Source: an uncultured Actinomycetota bacterium (GTDB taxonomy: Bacteria > Actinomycetota > Actinomycetes > JACCUZ01). Taken from it: DNA of 64,000 nt. Positions 18,068 to 36,800 of the stretch are shown one piece after another (the first letter of the stretch is position 1; every line of letters starts with the position of its first letter). Below the pieces are notes generated by a model. That model searched no databases and was not told where the DNA came from. It saw only the letters and a program-made list of their open reading frames with translations. A program made the translations under genes and the position numbers. The DNA is taken from contig CAWHJC010000003.1 of assembly GCA_963829565.1 (NCBI GenBank), positions 72,615 through 136,614 of the forward strand, read 5' to 3'.

Positions 18068-18143
18068 TGGTAGCCCCGACGGGATTCGAACCCGCGCTAC
18101 CGCCTTGAGAGGGCGGCGTGCTAGGCCGCTACACAACGGGGCC
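18068..18143 (-). tRNA. tRNA-Glu (anticodon CTC)
   Basis: Manual fold of GGCCCCGTTGTGTAGCGG...CCGCC CTCTCAA GGCGG...GGTTCGAATCCCGTCGGGGCTACCA. CCA is encoded. Confidence 0.85.
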
Positions 18144-18178
18144 ACGATGCTGCGACGCGCTGCGTCGCCGGTGAAGCG

Positions 18179-18250
18179 CTGGGGTACCAGGACTCGAACC
18201 TAGACTAGCTGAACCAGAATCAGCCGGGCTGCCAATTACCCCATACCCCA
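18179..18250 (-). tRNA. tRNA-Gln (anticodon CTG)
   Basis: TGGGGTA...GCTGA TTCTGGT TCAGC...GGTTCGAGTCCTGGTACCCCA with discriminator G. It has the U1-A72 acceptor typical of tRNA-Gln. CCA is not encoded. Confidence 0.85.
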
Positions 18251-26507: not shown

Positions 26508-26542
26508 TCAAACAAAAAGACCCCCCGCGGTCGCGGGAGGTC
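26508..26542 (-). terminator. Intrinsic terminator/attenuator hairpin immediately upstream of the cimA ribosome-binding site
   Basis: Minus strand: GACCTCCCGC-GACC-GCGGGGGGTC (10-bp stem with one G-U pair) followed by TTTTTGTTTG, then GAGGGGACAGCC-ATG. Confidence 0.6.
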
Positions 26543-26707
26543 TGCGCGTCGGCCGGCTCTTGTCGGGCGCCGGCGGGCGCGCTCAGGTCGTAATGCAGGC
26601 GTTCATTGCTCCCGAGAGTGCCACCGCGCGCCCACGGAGCGGAACCACCGTCCCACCATCCGGACCGGACGCCGGCTTCCCGGAGTCGGATGGCGGGACG
26701 TCCTGGG

Positions 26708-32925: not shown

Positions 32926-32929
<4 letters not shown>

Positions 32930-34729
32930 TCTCGGGTCTCCCCCGGCTCGGTGTCCCACTGCGGGGCCATGTCACGGGCCACCTGGATCTCGTCGTTGCT
33001 CGTGCCGGCCGGGACCATCGGCCACACCATCGCGTCCTGGTGGACGGTGAAGTCGACGACGACCGGGCGGTCGTCGATGGCCATCGCGCGGTCGATCGTG
33101 GCGTCGACTTCCTCCGCCTTCTCGCAGCGCAGCCCGACGCAGCCGTAGGCCTCCGCCAGCTTCACGAAGTCCGGGATGTGCTCCACCTTCGAGCCTGCTG
33201 CCGCGGCCGACCGGCCGGCACCGCCGAGGTCGGTGTTGGAGTAGCGCTCGTTGTAGAACAGCGTCTGCCACTGGCGGACCATGCCGAGACTTCCGTTGTT
33301 GATGATCGCCACCTTGATGGGGATGTCGTTGATGGCGCAGGTCGCGAGCTCCTGGTTGGTCATCTGGAAGCAGCCGTCGCCGTCGATCGCCCAGACGGTC
33401 GCGTCCGGCCGGCCGACCTTGGCGCCCATCGCCGCCGGCACGGCGTAGCCCATCGTGCCGAGCCCGCCGGAGTTCAGCCAGGTGGCCGGGTTCTCGTAGG
33501 AGATGAACTGCGCGGCCCACATCTGGTGCTGGCCGACTCCGGCAACGTAGAGCGCCTCCGGCCCTGCGATCTTGCCGAGCCGCTCGATGACGTACTGCGG
33601 CGCGAGCGACCCGTCGGCCGGTCGCTCGTAGCCCAGTGGGTAGGTGGCACGCCACGTGTCGACCTGGGCCCACCAGCCCTCGTAGTCGCCGTGGCGCCCG
33701 GCGGCGTGCTCGGCCTGCACCGCGGCAACCAGCTCGGTGATGACCTCCCGGGCGTCCCCGACGATCGGCACGTCCGCGGTGCGGTTCTTGGAGATCTCGG
33801 CCGGGTCGATATCGGCGTGGATCACCTTCGCGTCAGGGGCGAAGCTCGACAGCTTGCCGGTCACCCGGTCGTCGAACCGGGCGCCCAGGGAGATGAGGAG
33901 GTCCGACTTCTGCAGCGCGGTCACGGCGGCGACGGTCCCGTGCATTCCCGGCATCCCGAGGTGCTGTCGGTGGCTGTCGGGGAACAGCCCACGGGCCATC
34001 AGGGTGGTGACGACTGGGATGCCGGTGAGCTCCGCGAGGACCCGCAGCTCGGCCCACGCCCGCGCCTTGAGGACACCGCCGCCGACGTAGAGCACCGGCT
34101 GGCGCGACTGCGTGATCAGGCGCGCAGCCTCCCGGATCTGCTTGCCGTGGGGCCGGGTTACGGGGTGGTAGCCCGGCAGGTCGATCGAGGTCGGCCAGGT
34201 GAACGTAGTCCGGGCCTGCAGGGCGTCCTTCGCGACGTCGACCAGCACCGGGCCGGGGCGGCCGGTCGACGCGATGTGGAAAGCCTCGGCGATGGTGCGC
34301 GGGATCTCTGCCGGGTCGGTGACGAGGTAGTTGTGCTTGGTGATCGGCAGCGTGATGCCCCGGATGTCCGCCTCCTGGAAGGCGTCGGTGCCGATCGACG
34401 CACTGGGCACCTGACCCGGTGATGGCCACGATCGGGACGCTGTCCATGTAGGCGTCGGCGATGGGCGTCACCAGGTTGGTCGCGCCGGGCCCGCTGGTGG
34501 CCATGCACACGCCGACCCGGCCGGTGGCCTGGGCGTAGCCCTCGGCGGCGTGCCCGGCGCCCTGCTCGTGGCGGACCAGCACGTGCCGGATCGCCGTCGA
34601 GTCCATCAGCGGGTCGTAGAGCGGCAGGATCGCCCCGCCCGGGATGCCGAAGACCGTGTCGACCCCGGCAGCCTCCAGCGAGCGGACGAGACTCTGCGCT
34701 CCGGTGACCTGCTCGGGCTGCGCTGGCAT
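32926..34729 (-). CDS. ilvB: acetolactate synthase large subunit, with a frameshift near 34407
   Basis: TPP-enzyme N-terminus ([21 protein letters not shown]) is in one frame. The remainder ([16 protein letters not shown]...) is in another. One extra G in ACCGGGTCAGG rejoins them. Start is the ATG at 34729 ([10 protein letters not shown]). Confidence 0.9.
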
Positions 34730-34762
34730 CGCGGGACCTCTCGGATTCGGTGGGGAGCCAAC

Positions 34763-34799
34763 AAAAAACCCCTCCGGTCCAGTCTGGACTCGTGAGGGG
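34763..34799 (-). terminator. ilvB leader attenuator terminator
   Basis: Minus strand: CCCCTC-ACG-AGTCCAG-A-CTGGAC-CG-GAGGGG followed by TTTTTTG. It lies between the leader ORF and the ilvB start. Confidence 0.6.
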
Positions 34800-34817
34800 T
34801 TGCGCGCCTGGCTGAGG

Positions 34818-34862
34818 TCAGCCGGCGCGCAGGCGAAGTACGAGGGACGGCTGCGGGTGCAT
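34818..34862 (-). CDS. putative ilvB leader peptide ([14 protein letters not shown])
   Basis: 14-codon ORF containing L, V, L, L regulatory-type codons. Its TGA is 18 nt upstream of the terminator hairpin. Confidence 0.4.
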
Positions 34863-35054
34863 GGCGTCACGCTCGCCGGTGCCGCGTCCCGATGTCAACG
34901 GTTTCGAGACGGGCGTCCCAGGATCCGGACCGGACCGAGTAGTCCGGAACCGGCCGGGACAGGACAGGTCCCCGGCAGGTCACCCGACCGGCCCATAGGG
35001 GCTGCCACGGACCGCATCCGAAAACTAAAGGGAAGGTAAAGGGGAGGTGGAGCC

Positions 35055-36800
35055 ATGCCCGCCGAGGAGACGCCGGCTCGGTGGCAGCGCCGGGCCGCTT
35101 GGGCGAGGACGATCCGGGTGACCGTGTTCTGCGCCCCCGTCCTGGCCTCGTTCGTGGCCGCCTGGGCGGTCCGCGAGGCGCTGCCGCCGGCCGCCGGCCT
35201 GACCGCGCGCGCGCTCCAGCTCGCCGTGCTCGTCGCCGTGTCGACGCTCGTGCTGCTGCTCGTGGACCGGCTGGGCAGACGCGCCCTCCCCCTCGTCACG
35301 CTGCTCGACCTCAGCATGCTGTTCCCGGACCGCGCACCGTCACGGGTGAAGGTGGCTCGCGACGCGATTCAGGAAGCGGCCCATCGAGGAGCAGCTGGCC
35401 CGCGTCCGAGACGCCGGCGCCGACCCCGGCGCGGTCGCCCGCGAGATCCTGACGCTGGTGGCGGCCCTGAGCCAGCACGACCGGCCGACCCGCGGGCACG
35501 CCGAGCGCGTCCGGATGTTCACCGACCTGCTCGCCGACGCAGATGAAGATCCCGGCACGGGACCGTGACCTCCTGCGATGGGTGGCGATCCTGCACGACA
35601 TCGGAAAGCTCAAGGTGCCGGCGACCCTGCTGAACAAGCCGGGCAAGCCGACCGAGCACGAGTGGGAGCTGCTCAAGGCCCACCCCGGTCACGGCGCGGA
35701 CATGGCGGAGGCGCTGCTCCCATGGCTTGGCGAATGGGGCGACGTCATCGTGCAGCACCACGAGAGGTACGACGGGACGGGGTACCCGACCGGCCTCTCC
35801 GGGTCGAAGATCAGCCTGGGCGCACGCATCGTCTCGGTGGCCGACGCGTACGACGTCATGACCGCCGCTCGGGCCTACAAGCGGCCGGTCTCCCGCGCCG
35901 CCGCGCTGGCCGAGCTGGTGAAGTTCTCCGGCAGCCAGTTCGACCCGATGGTCGTCCGCGCGATGGTTGCCGTCGGTGCCCCACGGCTGCGCCGCGCCCA
36001 GGGGCTGGTGGCCTGGCTGGCCGACCTGCCGCTGGTGGCGACCGGGTCGGTGCCCGCGGCGACCGTCGCCCGGGTGGTGGGGGCCGGAGCGCTCGCTACC
36101 GGCGCGGTCACCGGCGGGATGGTGGTGGAGGACGCCCTCCCACAGCCACCGACAGGCATCGTGGCGGAGCGGGCGGTGTCCCAGGGCGCGCCGGACCGAT
36201 CCGGGGCGGCCGGTCGCGCCGGCGACGGCCCTGCAGTCGAGAGCGCTGCGGCCGACCGCGCGGCCACATCCCTTCGGCCGGATTCGTCGCCGACGCCCCA
36301 GGCGACCGACGCCTCACCCACGGCAGCGGGAGCCTCCTCGAGGGCACCGGCGACGCGCGGCCCCGGCGACGAAGACGGGTCCGCGCCGGAGCCAGCCGGG
36401 TCGACCTCCACCGACCGCTCGGGCGAGGTCGCGCCCTCGGATGCCGCGACCAGCACCGCGCCGACCCCTGCGCCGGCCACCACGGGCGGCACCGGGAAGT
36501 CGTCGGGTGGCACGCTCACGGACACCGTGGGCACGGCGACGGACACCGTCGACGGTGCGGTCGGCACCGTGACCGGCACGGTCGACGACGTGCTCACCGA
36601 CCCGGTCGGCACGGTGGACGGCGTCGTCAGCGACCCGGTCGGGACGGTTACCGACACGCTGGACAAGCTGCTCGGTGGGAGCAGTCACGACGCCGTCGAG
36701 CCCACGCCGTGGCACCGGCGGCGGGCCGCTGCGACGAGGGCTCTCACCGGGTTGCCTGCTCGAAGCTGGCACTCGCCTCGGCGGTCTGCTCGGCCACTCG
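35055..36800 (+). CDS. HD-GYP domain c-di-GMP phosphodiesterase with an N-terminal membrane region and a Thr/Val/Gly-rich repetitive tail (about two frameshifts; 3' end uncertain)
   Basis: Transmembrane N-terminus (35055 frame), a linker (HAERVRMF) in a second frame, and the HD-GYP core (ILHDIGK...HHERYDGTGYP) from 35543. A TDTVGT / DPVGTV repeat tail lies at about 36500-36690. There is no clear stop before the convergent ilvD. Confidence 0.65.
36500..36690. repeat. degenerate tandem repeats encoding TDTVGT / DPVGTV units in the HD-GYP tail
   Basis: Reiterated gacaccgtcggcacggtg-like units are visible in the sequence. Confidence 0.5.

Follow-up and report, generated by a model that had tools for sequence, protein, structure and literature searches.

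We analyzed 64,000 nucleotides (nt) of contig CAWHJC010000003.1, from an uncultured Actinomycetota bacterium; this whole stretch is referred to hereafter as the window. Within it the ilvB-ilvN-ilvC operon, recognized by NCBIfam matches, is preceded by a compact leader: a 14-codon mini-open reading frame (mini-ORF), a hairpin here called hairpin A, and an intrinsic terminator. The leader lies directly 5′ of the operon and on the same strand, and the gene order downstream of it is ilvB, ilvN, ilvC, serA, leuB, ilvE, an ORF with an SseB domain and cimA. The upstream neighbor, a gene with an HD_5 domain (HD-GYP-like) located on the plus strand at 35055-36680, is divergent, so the terminator stands between the promoter region and ilvB rather than at the 3′-end of another gene. 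We consider it very likely that the element is a leader-peptide transcription attenuator of the actinobacterial ilvL type, acting on ilvB-ilvN-ilvC. Its parts, and the genes that follow, are these:

34893..34898, minus strand: −35 box TTGACA, read from the sequence and by likeness to other loci
34869..34874, minus strand: candidate −10 hexamer GAGCGT, read from the sequence, with the geometry of Streptomyces lividans ilvL
34818..34862, minus strand: leader peptide ORF (ilvL-like), 14 codons plus TGA, from ATG 34862 to TGA 34820-34818
34836..34844, minus strand: regulatory codons CTC GTA CTT (Leu7-Val8-Leu9), from the rarity of GTA and CTT and conservation across loci
34801..34831, minus strand: hairpin A (equivalent to P1 of Corynebacterium), from folding and covariation
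34800..34817, minus strand: 18-nt spacer from stop codon to terminator stem
34769..34799, minus strand: intrinsic terminator stem-loop (equivalent to P2), from folding, with a conserved stem base
34763..34768, minus strand: U-tract (T6), followed by a conserved GTTG; the only T run of at least six in the window
34737..34742, minus strand: Shine-Dalgarno-like GAGAGG, read from the sequence, 7 nt ahead of the ilvB ATG
32926..34729, minus strand: ilvB, acetolactate synthase large subunit (NCBIfam NF005860, 1131 bits)
~32929-32396, minus strand: ilvN (NCBIfam NF008864, 232 bits)
32352-31354, minus strand: ilvC (NCBIfam NF004017, 538 bits)

The mini-ORF reads ATG CAC CCG CAG CCG TCC CTC GTA CTT CGC CTG CGC GCC GGC TGA. 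Hairpin A (UGCGCGCCGGCUG-ACCU-CAGCC-A-GGCGCGCA; fold energy −26.3 kcal/mol) begins 7 nt past the GUA codon, takes its 5′ arm from leader codons 11–14 and the stop codon, and ends 1 nt short of the terminator. The terminator, CCCCTCACGAGTCCAGACTGGACCGGAGGGG, pairs as CCCCUC A CG A GUCCA-GAC-UGGAC CG GAGGGG (−20.7 kcal/mol when folded alone), and its T run is followed, after 33 nt, by the ilvB ATG (34729). The initial annotation had described a 14-codon ORF with Leu and Val codons, a gap of 18 nt between its stop codon and the terminator, a CCCCTC..GAGGGG stem with a T run, and a distance of about 35 nt from there to ilvB. All four descriptions agree with what lies at the locus: the ORF (34862-34818) with its L-V-L core, the gap at 34817-34800, the stem at 34799-34769 with T6 at 34768-34763 and then G, and the 33 nt just given.

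The candidate −10 hexamer is located 18 nt past the −35 box and 6 nt ahead of the mini-ORF ATG. In S. lividans the ilvL promoter has the geometry TTGACA-18-GAGGGT-7-ATG (PMC8079986), and it is on this shared geometry that the putative role of GAGCGT as a −10 element is based. A consensus scan for sigma-70 promoters and terminators called neither GAGCGT nor the terminator, which we attribute to the limit of the patterns used: GAGCGT is unlike TATAAT. Across the actinobacterial loci described below, the distance from the end of a TTGACA-like hexamer to the start of the mini-ORF (ATG or GTG) is 29–31 nt in 65 of 71 distinct loci, and 30 nt in the window; such a geometry places the start of transcription on the start codon, and with it implies a leaderless ORF. 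The ilvL of S. lividans TK24 has been mapped as leaderless, with hairpins and a U-rich segment downstream (PMC8079986). By the same token, the leader transcript of the window probably starts at or next to the mini-ORF ATG. Two other starts, TTG 34898 (26 aa) and GTG 34870, were considered and rejected: the conserved −35 spacing favors ATG 34862 over both, and the TTG sits within the −35 box.

The GC content of the window is 72.9%. Runs of at least five T number three over both strands, and the T6 at 34768-34763 alone reaches six or more; the third T5 run (22979, plus strand) is inside a long open reading frame, and no terminator-like hairpin was seen beside it. For the leader, taken as 155 nt, the fold energy is −72.5 kcal/mol, with z = −3.98 relative to dinucleotide shuffles. 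An independent covariance model was built from 24 other actinobacterial ilvB leaders, with the window and its two closest relatives left out; its top match in the 64 kb is 34759-34850(−), with 65.1 bits and E = 7.4e-12. Rfam, searched at permissive thresholds over 33500-36000, gave chance-level miRNA matches alone (E>1), and at gathering thresholds the whole window returned two tRNAs and none of the families in which ilvB-associated motifs, ppGpp/ykkC riboswitches, T-boxes or curated leaders would fall. Because Rfam holds no model for the element, annotation pipelines will miss it.

For comparison we used 80 actinobacterial loci, one genome per species, which were scanned with the frame-repaired IlvB of the window (the repair is explained below). 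The closest are two uncultured Actinomycetota metagenome-assembled genomes (90% amino-acid identity); others, at 72–80% identity, come from Streptomyces, Kitasatospora, Actinomadura, Nocardioides, Nocardiopsis, Micromonospora, Rhodococcus and Nocardia, among others. Conservation of mini-ORF and hairpin in relatives had been named in advance as a check, and it was found: the element model is present in exactly one copy per locus, 5′ of ilvB, in 74 of the 80 loci. Mini-ORFs were found in 68 loci. They are 7–17 codons long and variable at the N-terminus, and share a core (I/L)-L-V-(L/V), written (AUU) CUC GUA CUU and followed by ..R(R)(A/V)G, with which the L-V-L of the window aligns. At the regulatory codons the conservation is at the level of nucleotides (CTCGTACTT).

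Spacing is very strict across the phylum: GUA plus 7 nt, then a linker of 0–2 nt. The last in-frame GUA is separated from hairpin A by exactly 7 nt in 48 of 68 loci and by 6–8 nt in 60, while the linker between hairpin A and terminator measures 0–2 nt in 66 of 68 (1 nt in the window). Hairpin A has a closing helix RGCGCGYC/GRCGCGCY and a variable interior. The terminator likewise has a variable interior on a stem base, CCCCUCG..CGAGGGG, that is present in about 75 of the 80 loci; it is followed by U5–7 and usually by GUUG, and TTTTTTGTTG is common to most loci.

The closing helix of hairpin A also covaries. In 76 sequences aligned by fitting to the model, a procedure that favors the structure, 94.9% of the cells of this helix are paired, and four of its eight pairs are changed on both sides. 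None of 500 shuffles reached the covariation score or the count of doubly changed cells, and in slid controls, with the structure moved by 1–3 columns, covariation was far lower; hairpin A also folds sequence by sequence. In six loci (L008, L028, L043, L055, L067 and L076) a UAG stop stands ahead of the hairpin arm, and the arm AGCGCGCC (GCGCG) is kept beyond it: the “RRAG/KRVG” tail encoded by the 3′ part of the ORF is thus conserved as RNA and not as peptide.

Codon frequencies were derived from 27 long ORFs of the window with high GC content at third codon positions. GTA makes up 2.3% of Val codons, CTT 1.5% of Leu codons and ATT 0.4% of Ile codons. The occurrence side by side, at the conserved core, of GTA and CTT – codons both rare and cognate – fits the need of a sensor of tRNA charging.

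The window element is an orthologue, in an uncultured lineage, of the known family of actinobacterial ilvB leaders; its kind is already known. Leader peptides and terminators 5′ of ilvB were predicted in Corynebacterium, Mycobacterium and Streptomyces by Seliverstov et al. 2005 (PMC1262725). Streptomyces loci of our comparison set encode MRTRILVLGKRVG, the published S. lividans ilvL peptide (PMC8079986); ilvL leads the ilvBHC/ilvBNC operon of S. lividans and S. coelicolor. Both the Streptomyces leader and that of the window precede ilvB, with TTGACA about 30 nt ahead of the start codon; both peptides (MRTRILVLGKRVG and the 14-aa peptide of the window) contain the core xLVLxxRxG; and both leaders have CUC GUA CUU, the 7-nt spacer, a GCGCG-closed hairpin and a CCCCUCG..CGAGGGG-U6-GUUG terminator. 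In contrast, the window peptide lacks an Ile codon and has another N-terminus. Streptomyces leaders carry an extra internal hairpin and 43–58 nt between stop codon and terminator, whereas hairpin A of the window is minimal (31 nt, with a 4-nt loop), and their terminators lie ~130–190 nt from the ilvB start, as against 33 nt in the window. The gene order ilvB-ilvN-ilvC-serA-leuB-ilvE-cimA of the window is one that we take to be that of Streptomyces as well.

Experimental evidence comes from two other genera. In Mycobacterium tuberculosis a leader transcript of ~120 nt stops short of the ilvB1 ORF, the upstream ORF (uORF) carries ribosome footprints, and induction by an AHAS inhibitor is abolished when LVVI is changed to AAAA; in the accompanying model GUA is highlighted as the regulatory codon (PMC13236596). 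The plan described there – a uORF with codons for branched-chain amino acids (BCAAs), a Rho-independent terminator before ilvB1NC, and stalling that leads to read-through (PMC13236596) – is the one that we propose for the window, and the Mycobacteriales loci of our set (Rhodococcus L074 and L075, Nocardia L080) fit the architecture of GUA plus 7 nt, hairpin and terminator. They differ in one point: the mutually exclusive antiterminator of that paper, compared by the paper's description, was found neither in the window nor in these Mycobacteriales loci. The “ilvB-II motif” of Corynebacterium combines P1 and a P2 terminator with a uORF that overlaps P1, and it represses in rich medium (PMC10272879); attenuation of C. 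glutamicum ilvBNC goes back to Morbach 2000, as cited in PMC10272879. Shared with the window are P1 and the P2 terminator with its U-tract, the uORF over P1, a peptide enriched in I, L and V, and a single copy per genome 5′ of ilvB. By the paper's description, the Corynebacterium uORFs differ in usually having 15–17 codons and in lying ~150 nt from ilvB, and the antiterminator proposed there, in which the P1 loop binds the P2 3′ shoulder, has no match beyond chance in the loci compared here.

The homologous ilvB leaders of M. tuberculosis and Corynebacterium are thus BCAA-responsive attenuators by experiment (PMC13236596, PMC10272879). Attenuation of the ilvBNC type, as known from corynebacteria and streptomycetes, had been suggested by the initial annotation: the first half of the comparison holds through the homologue experiments, while the second amounts to prediction and mapping of transcription starts rather than demonstrated attenuation. 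Carried over from the homologues to the window, BCAA limitation would lead to read-through in a manner that requires the regulatory codons.

The leaders of enterobacteria (trpL, leuL, ilvL of ilvGMEDA and ivbL of ilvBN) likewise combine a short ORF of cognate codons with an intrinsic terminator, the position of the ribosome being read by RNA structure. Rare cognate codons are a known trait of these leaders, as are overlapping 1:2, 2:3 and 3:4 segments, long codon runs and an ORF led by a Shine-Dalgarno sequence. The window differs from them in having two adjoining, non-overlapping hairpins, three regulatory codons and a leaderless ORF, and an antiterminator sharing nucleotides with the terminator, as in the four-segment E. 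coli trp type, was found neither in the window nor in 66 loci.

We propose that transcription would begin at or next to the ATG of the leaderless 14-codon mini-ORF, and that a translating ribosome would then reach the Leu-Val-Leu codons CUC GUA CUU, two of them rare. Where charged BCAA tRNAs are ample, the ribosome would pass codons 11–14 to UGA; hairpin A, whose 5′ arm is made of those codons, could not form, and without it the adjoining CCCCUC..GAGGGG-U6 terminator would halt RNA polymerase 33 nt ahead of ilvB. Where charged tRNAs are scarce, the ribosome would stall with GUA or CUU in the A site, just before hairpin A; the hairpin would remain folded and the polymerase would read through into ilvBNC. 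The helix of hairpin A starts ~10 nt from the first base of an A-site GUA codon. As a general property of the ribosome, ~10 nt past the first base of the A-site codon is roughly where mRNA enters. A ribosome at the stop codon, by the geometry of the loci inspected, would have the hairpin-A 5′ arm within its footprint. From the geometry at GUA and at the stop, the presence of hairpin A is the sole difference in RNA between the stalled and the finished state; and since the homologues read through on starvation, hairpin A would have to be the functional antiterminator, that is, the element that blocks termination.

A number of observations weigh against such an attenuator. Alternative antiterminator pairing, which the initial annotation expected RNA folding to reveal, did not emerge: a mutually exclusive antiterminator was looked for by minimum-free-energy and partition-function folding with the ribosome masked, by complementarity and by inspection of the sequence, and none was found. 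At folding equilibrium the basal pairs of the terminator have a probability of ~0.975 in the window, whether the ribosome is masked at GUA, masked at the stop or absent, and the median probability in 66 loci is 0.956 with the ribosome stalled and 0.955 with it at the stop. Pairing of the Corynebacterium type, between the P1 loop and the P2 3′ shoulder, is not enriched over shuffles in 68 loci (mean z 0.00; p≤0.05 in 4 of 68), and amounts in the window to −6.7 kcal/mol, against −8.7 for shuffles. The 14 codons of the leader include three for Leu, one for Val and none for Ile. For the S. coelicolor ilvB leader, substitution of the candidate regulatory codons is reported to have left regulation unchanged, on account of which Seliverstov et al. 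call the mode of regulation unclear (PMC1262725). Finally, were the ilvB frameshift described below real, the first gene of the operon would be a pseudogene.

A second leader in the window bears on the same question. The second match of the independent model, 26510-26601(−), falls before cimA (citramalate synthase; TIGR00977, 644 bits; ATG 26497), where an element of the same architecture as the ilvB leader is found:

26513-26605, minus strand: cimA leader element
26605-26582, minus strand: cimA mini-ORF MNACITT, from ATG 26605 to TGA 26582

It consists of the mini-ORF, a GCGCG-closed hairpin, a 1-nt linker and a terminator, GACCUCCCGCGACCGCGGGGGGUC-U5, which lies 16 nt before cimA. The mini-ORF of the window has a single Ile codon, the very rare ATT; in the window this reads ATT ACG, as against ATT ATT in the relative L107, in each case ahead of ACC TGA. 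We compared 19 cimA leaders, from the window and 18 metagenomic relatives, picking in each the upstream ORF with most Ile codons. In the relatives the ORF so picked usually has runs of two or three Ile codons (for example ATC ATT ATC); the last Ile codon lies 5 nt from the hairpin in 16 of the 19 leaders, and the linker is 0–1 nt in 15. A leader of the same architecture with Ile codons before cimA fits a design for codon-specific sensing. No Rfam family matched the cimA leader, and a full-text literature search found no published description of it.

Strict spacing together with the lack of a competing pairing is beyond what the classical attenuation model explains. It is possible, and we put it forward tentatively, that leaders of the ilvB family achieve antitermination by adjacency rather than by alternative pairing, and that a version with Ile codons controls cimA. 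Hairpin A, a rigid GC-clamped helix 0–2 nt from the base of the terminator, would sterically keep the last terminator pairs from forming within the polymerase's RNA exit channel. Thanks to the 7-nt spacer, it would lie precisely where mRNA enters a ribosome that has stalled on the rare GUA codon, and a ribosome running on to the stop codon would melt it and restore termination. The suggestion draws on the fact that hairpin A has no nucleotides in common with the terminator, and on three conserved features: the invariant GC clamp that closes hairpin A, the 0–2 nt linker and the 7-nt spacer to GUA. If it is true, actinobacteria would possess a general attenuator architecture distinct from the 1:2 / 2:3 / 3:4 scheme of enterobacteria, and adjacency could account for the old ‘paradoxical’ results from S. 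coelicolor.

The alternative that survives best is classical attenuation as in E. coli trp, leu and ilvGMEDA: stalling of the ribosome would form an antiterminator that overlaps the terminator in sequence, through a pairing so far unrecognized. Hairpin A might, for instance, reach a little way into the leading C residues of the terminator, or ACCUC in the hairpin-A loop might pair with GGGGU. We regard classical attenuation as doubtful. A mutually exclusive terminator and antiterminator are drawn in both the M. tuberculosis and the Corynebacterium papers (PMC13236596, PMC10272879), and the hairpin-A loop of the window does contain ACCUC, a partial copy of the terminator 5′ arm; however, complementarity between the hairpin-A interior and the terminator 3′ shoulder is at chance level in 68 loci, and no switch emerges from equilibrium folding with the ribosome masked. 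Some clades (Streptomyces, Actinomadura, Rhodococcus) have a GG, two nt 5′ of hairpin A, that could bind the leading CC of the terminator over a 2×2 internal loop. Neither the window and its clade (CUUCGCC) nor, for instance, Nocardioides has this GG, which a ribosome stalled at GUA would also enclose. Lengthening of hairpin A into the terminator by way of the upstream GG was accordingly rejected as clade-specific, absent in the window and located within the stalled ribosome. Pairing of CUCGU, from the regulatory codons, with ACGAG of the terminator is present in the window and was also rejected: the stalled ribosome covers it, it uses different arms in different clades, and it occurs in no predicted fold. 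Nor would alternative pairing need the strict 0–2 nt linker and 7-nt spacing. On these grounds an effect of adjacency seems to us more likely than a classical antiterminator that has escaped detection.

A further alternative dispenses with the mini-ORF as sensor and takes the conserved RNA, an invariant GCGCG helix beside a terminator, as the site for a regulatory protein or a small ligand. The core of the closing helix is invariant in sequence, beyond the conservation of pairs, and the cimA leader has this GCGCG helix as well; searches for antiterminator pairing were negative; and codon substitutions in S. coelicolor are reported to be without effect (PMC1262725). Against this, the start codon stands at a fixed distance from the −35 box, an in-frame ILV core is always present, and rare codons fall exactly at that core. 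The ilvB leaders have codons for Leu, Val and Ile where the cimA leaders have runs of Ile, each matching its pathway. Codon mutants of M. tuberculosis lose regulation (PMC13236596), the Corynebacterium RNA shows no ligand response to ppGpp (PMC10272879), and no Rfam riboswitch matched; we therefore think a protein or ligand site very improbable. Least credible of all is a constitutive terminator yielding a short, stable, sRNA-like leader RNA with no amino-acid control, or a chance hairpin and ORF, since, even if equilibrium folding gives termination in every ribosome state, a strong constitutive terminator placed between an essential biosynthetic operon and its sole visible promoter would shut that operon down, conservation across the phylum extends to the entire composite element, the T6 of the element is unique in the window, and homologues are regulated (PMC13236596, PMC10272879).

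An ilvL-type attenuator of a kind known and validated in relatives is the reading we retain, and the instance in the window adds little biology of its own. The antitermination step proposed here concerns the whole ilvB leader family, the window included; strict spacing, the lack of a detectable competing antiterminator and a cimA paralogue with Ile codons make that step directly testable.

The ilvB gene itself requires comment. Its frame is broken after residue 105 by one extra base at ~34414-34415 on the minus strand, where the window has ACCGGGTCAGG and relatives have ACCGGCCAGG; the window reads ACCGGGTCAGGTG, as against ACCGGCCAGGTG or ACAGGCCAGGTG in five relatives (L001, L002, L005, L006 and L008). 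The relatives' version of this site holds CCAGG, an instance of the CCWGG motif, and CCWGG contexts are a known spot for basecalling errors in long reads. The extra base is either an assembly error or the mark of a pseudogene. The divergent HD-domain gene presents a similar picture: its orthologue is an intact single ORF in L001 and L002, which aligns to the window in three frames, with switches at ~35370 and ~35539, that is, two apparent frameshifts. Three indels within ~3 kb, in ilvB and the HD-domain gene, indicate problems of sequence quality in this window and speak for errors in the assembly more than for pseudogenes.

The position of the element shows where the ilvBNC transcript, and ilvB itself, truly begin. 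Translation from ATG 34729, with GAGAGG 7 nt upstream, is consistent with homologue alignments. On the same strand, GTG 34870 opens a 345-aa ORF that reads in frame across the entire attenuator into ilvB, and a gene caller choosing this GTG as the ilvB start could bury the leader in coding sequence. Elsewhere in the window, two adjoining tRNA genes are located at 18071-18250 on the minus strand, and are its sole Rfam matches at the gathering threshold.

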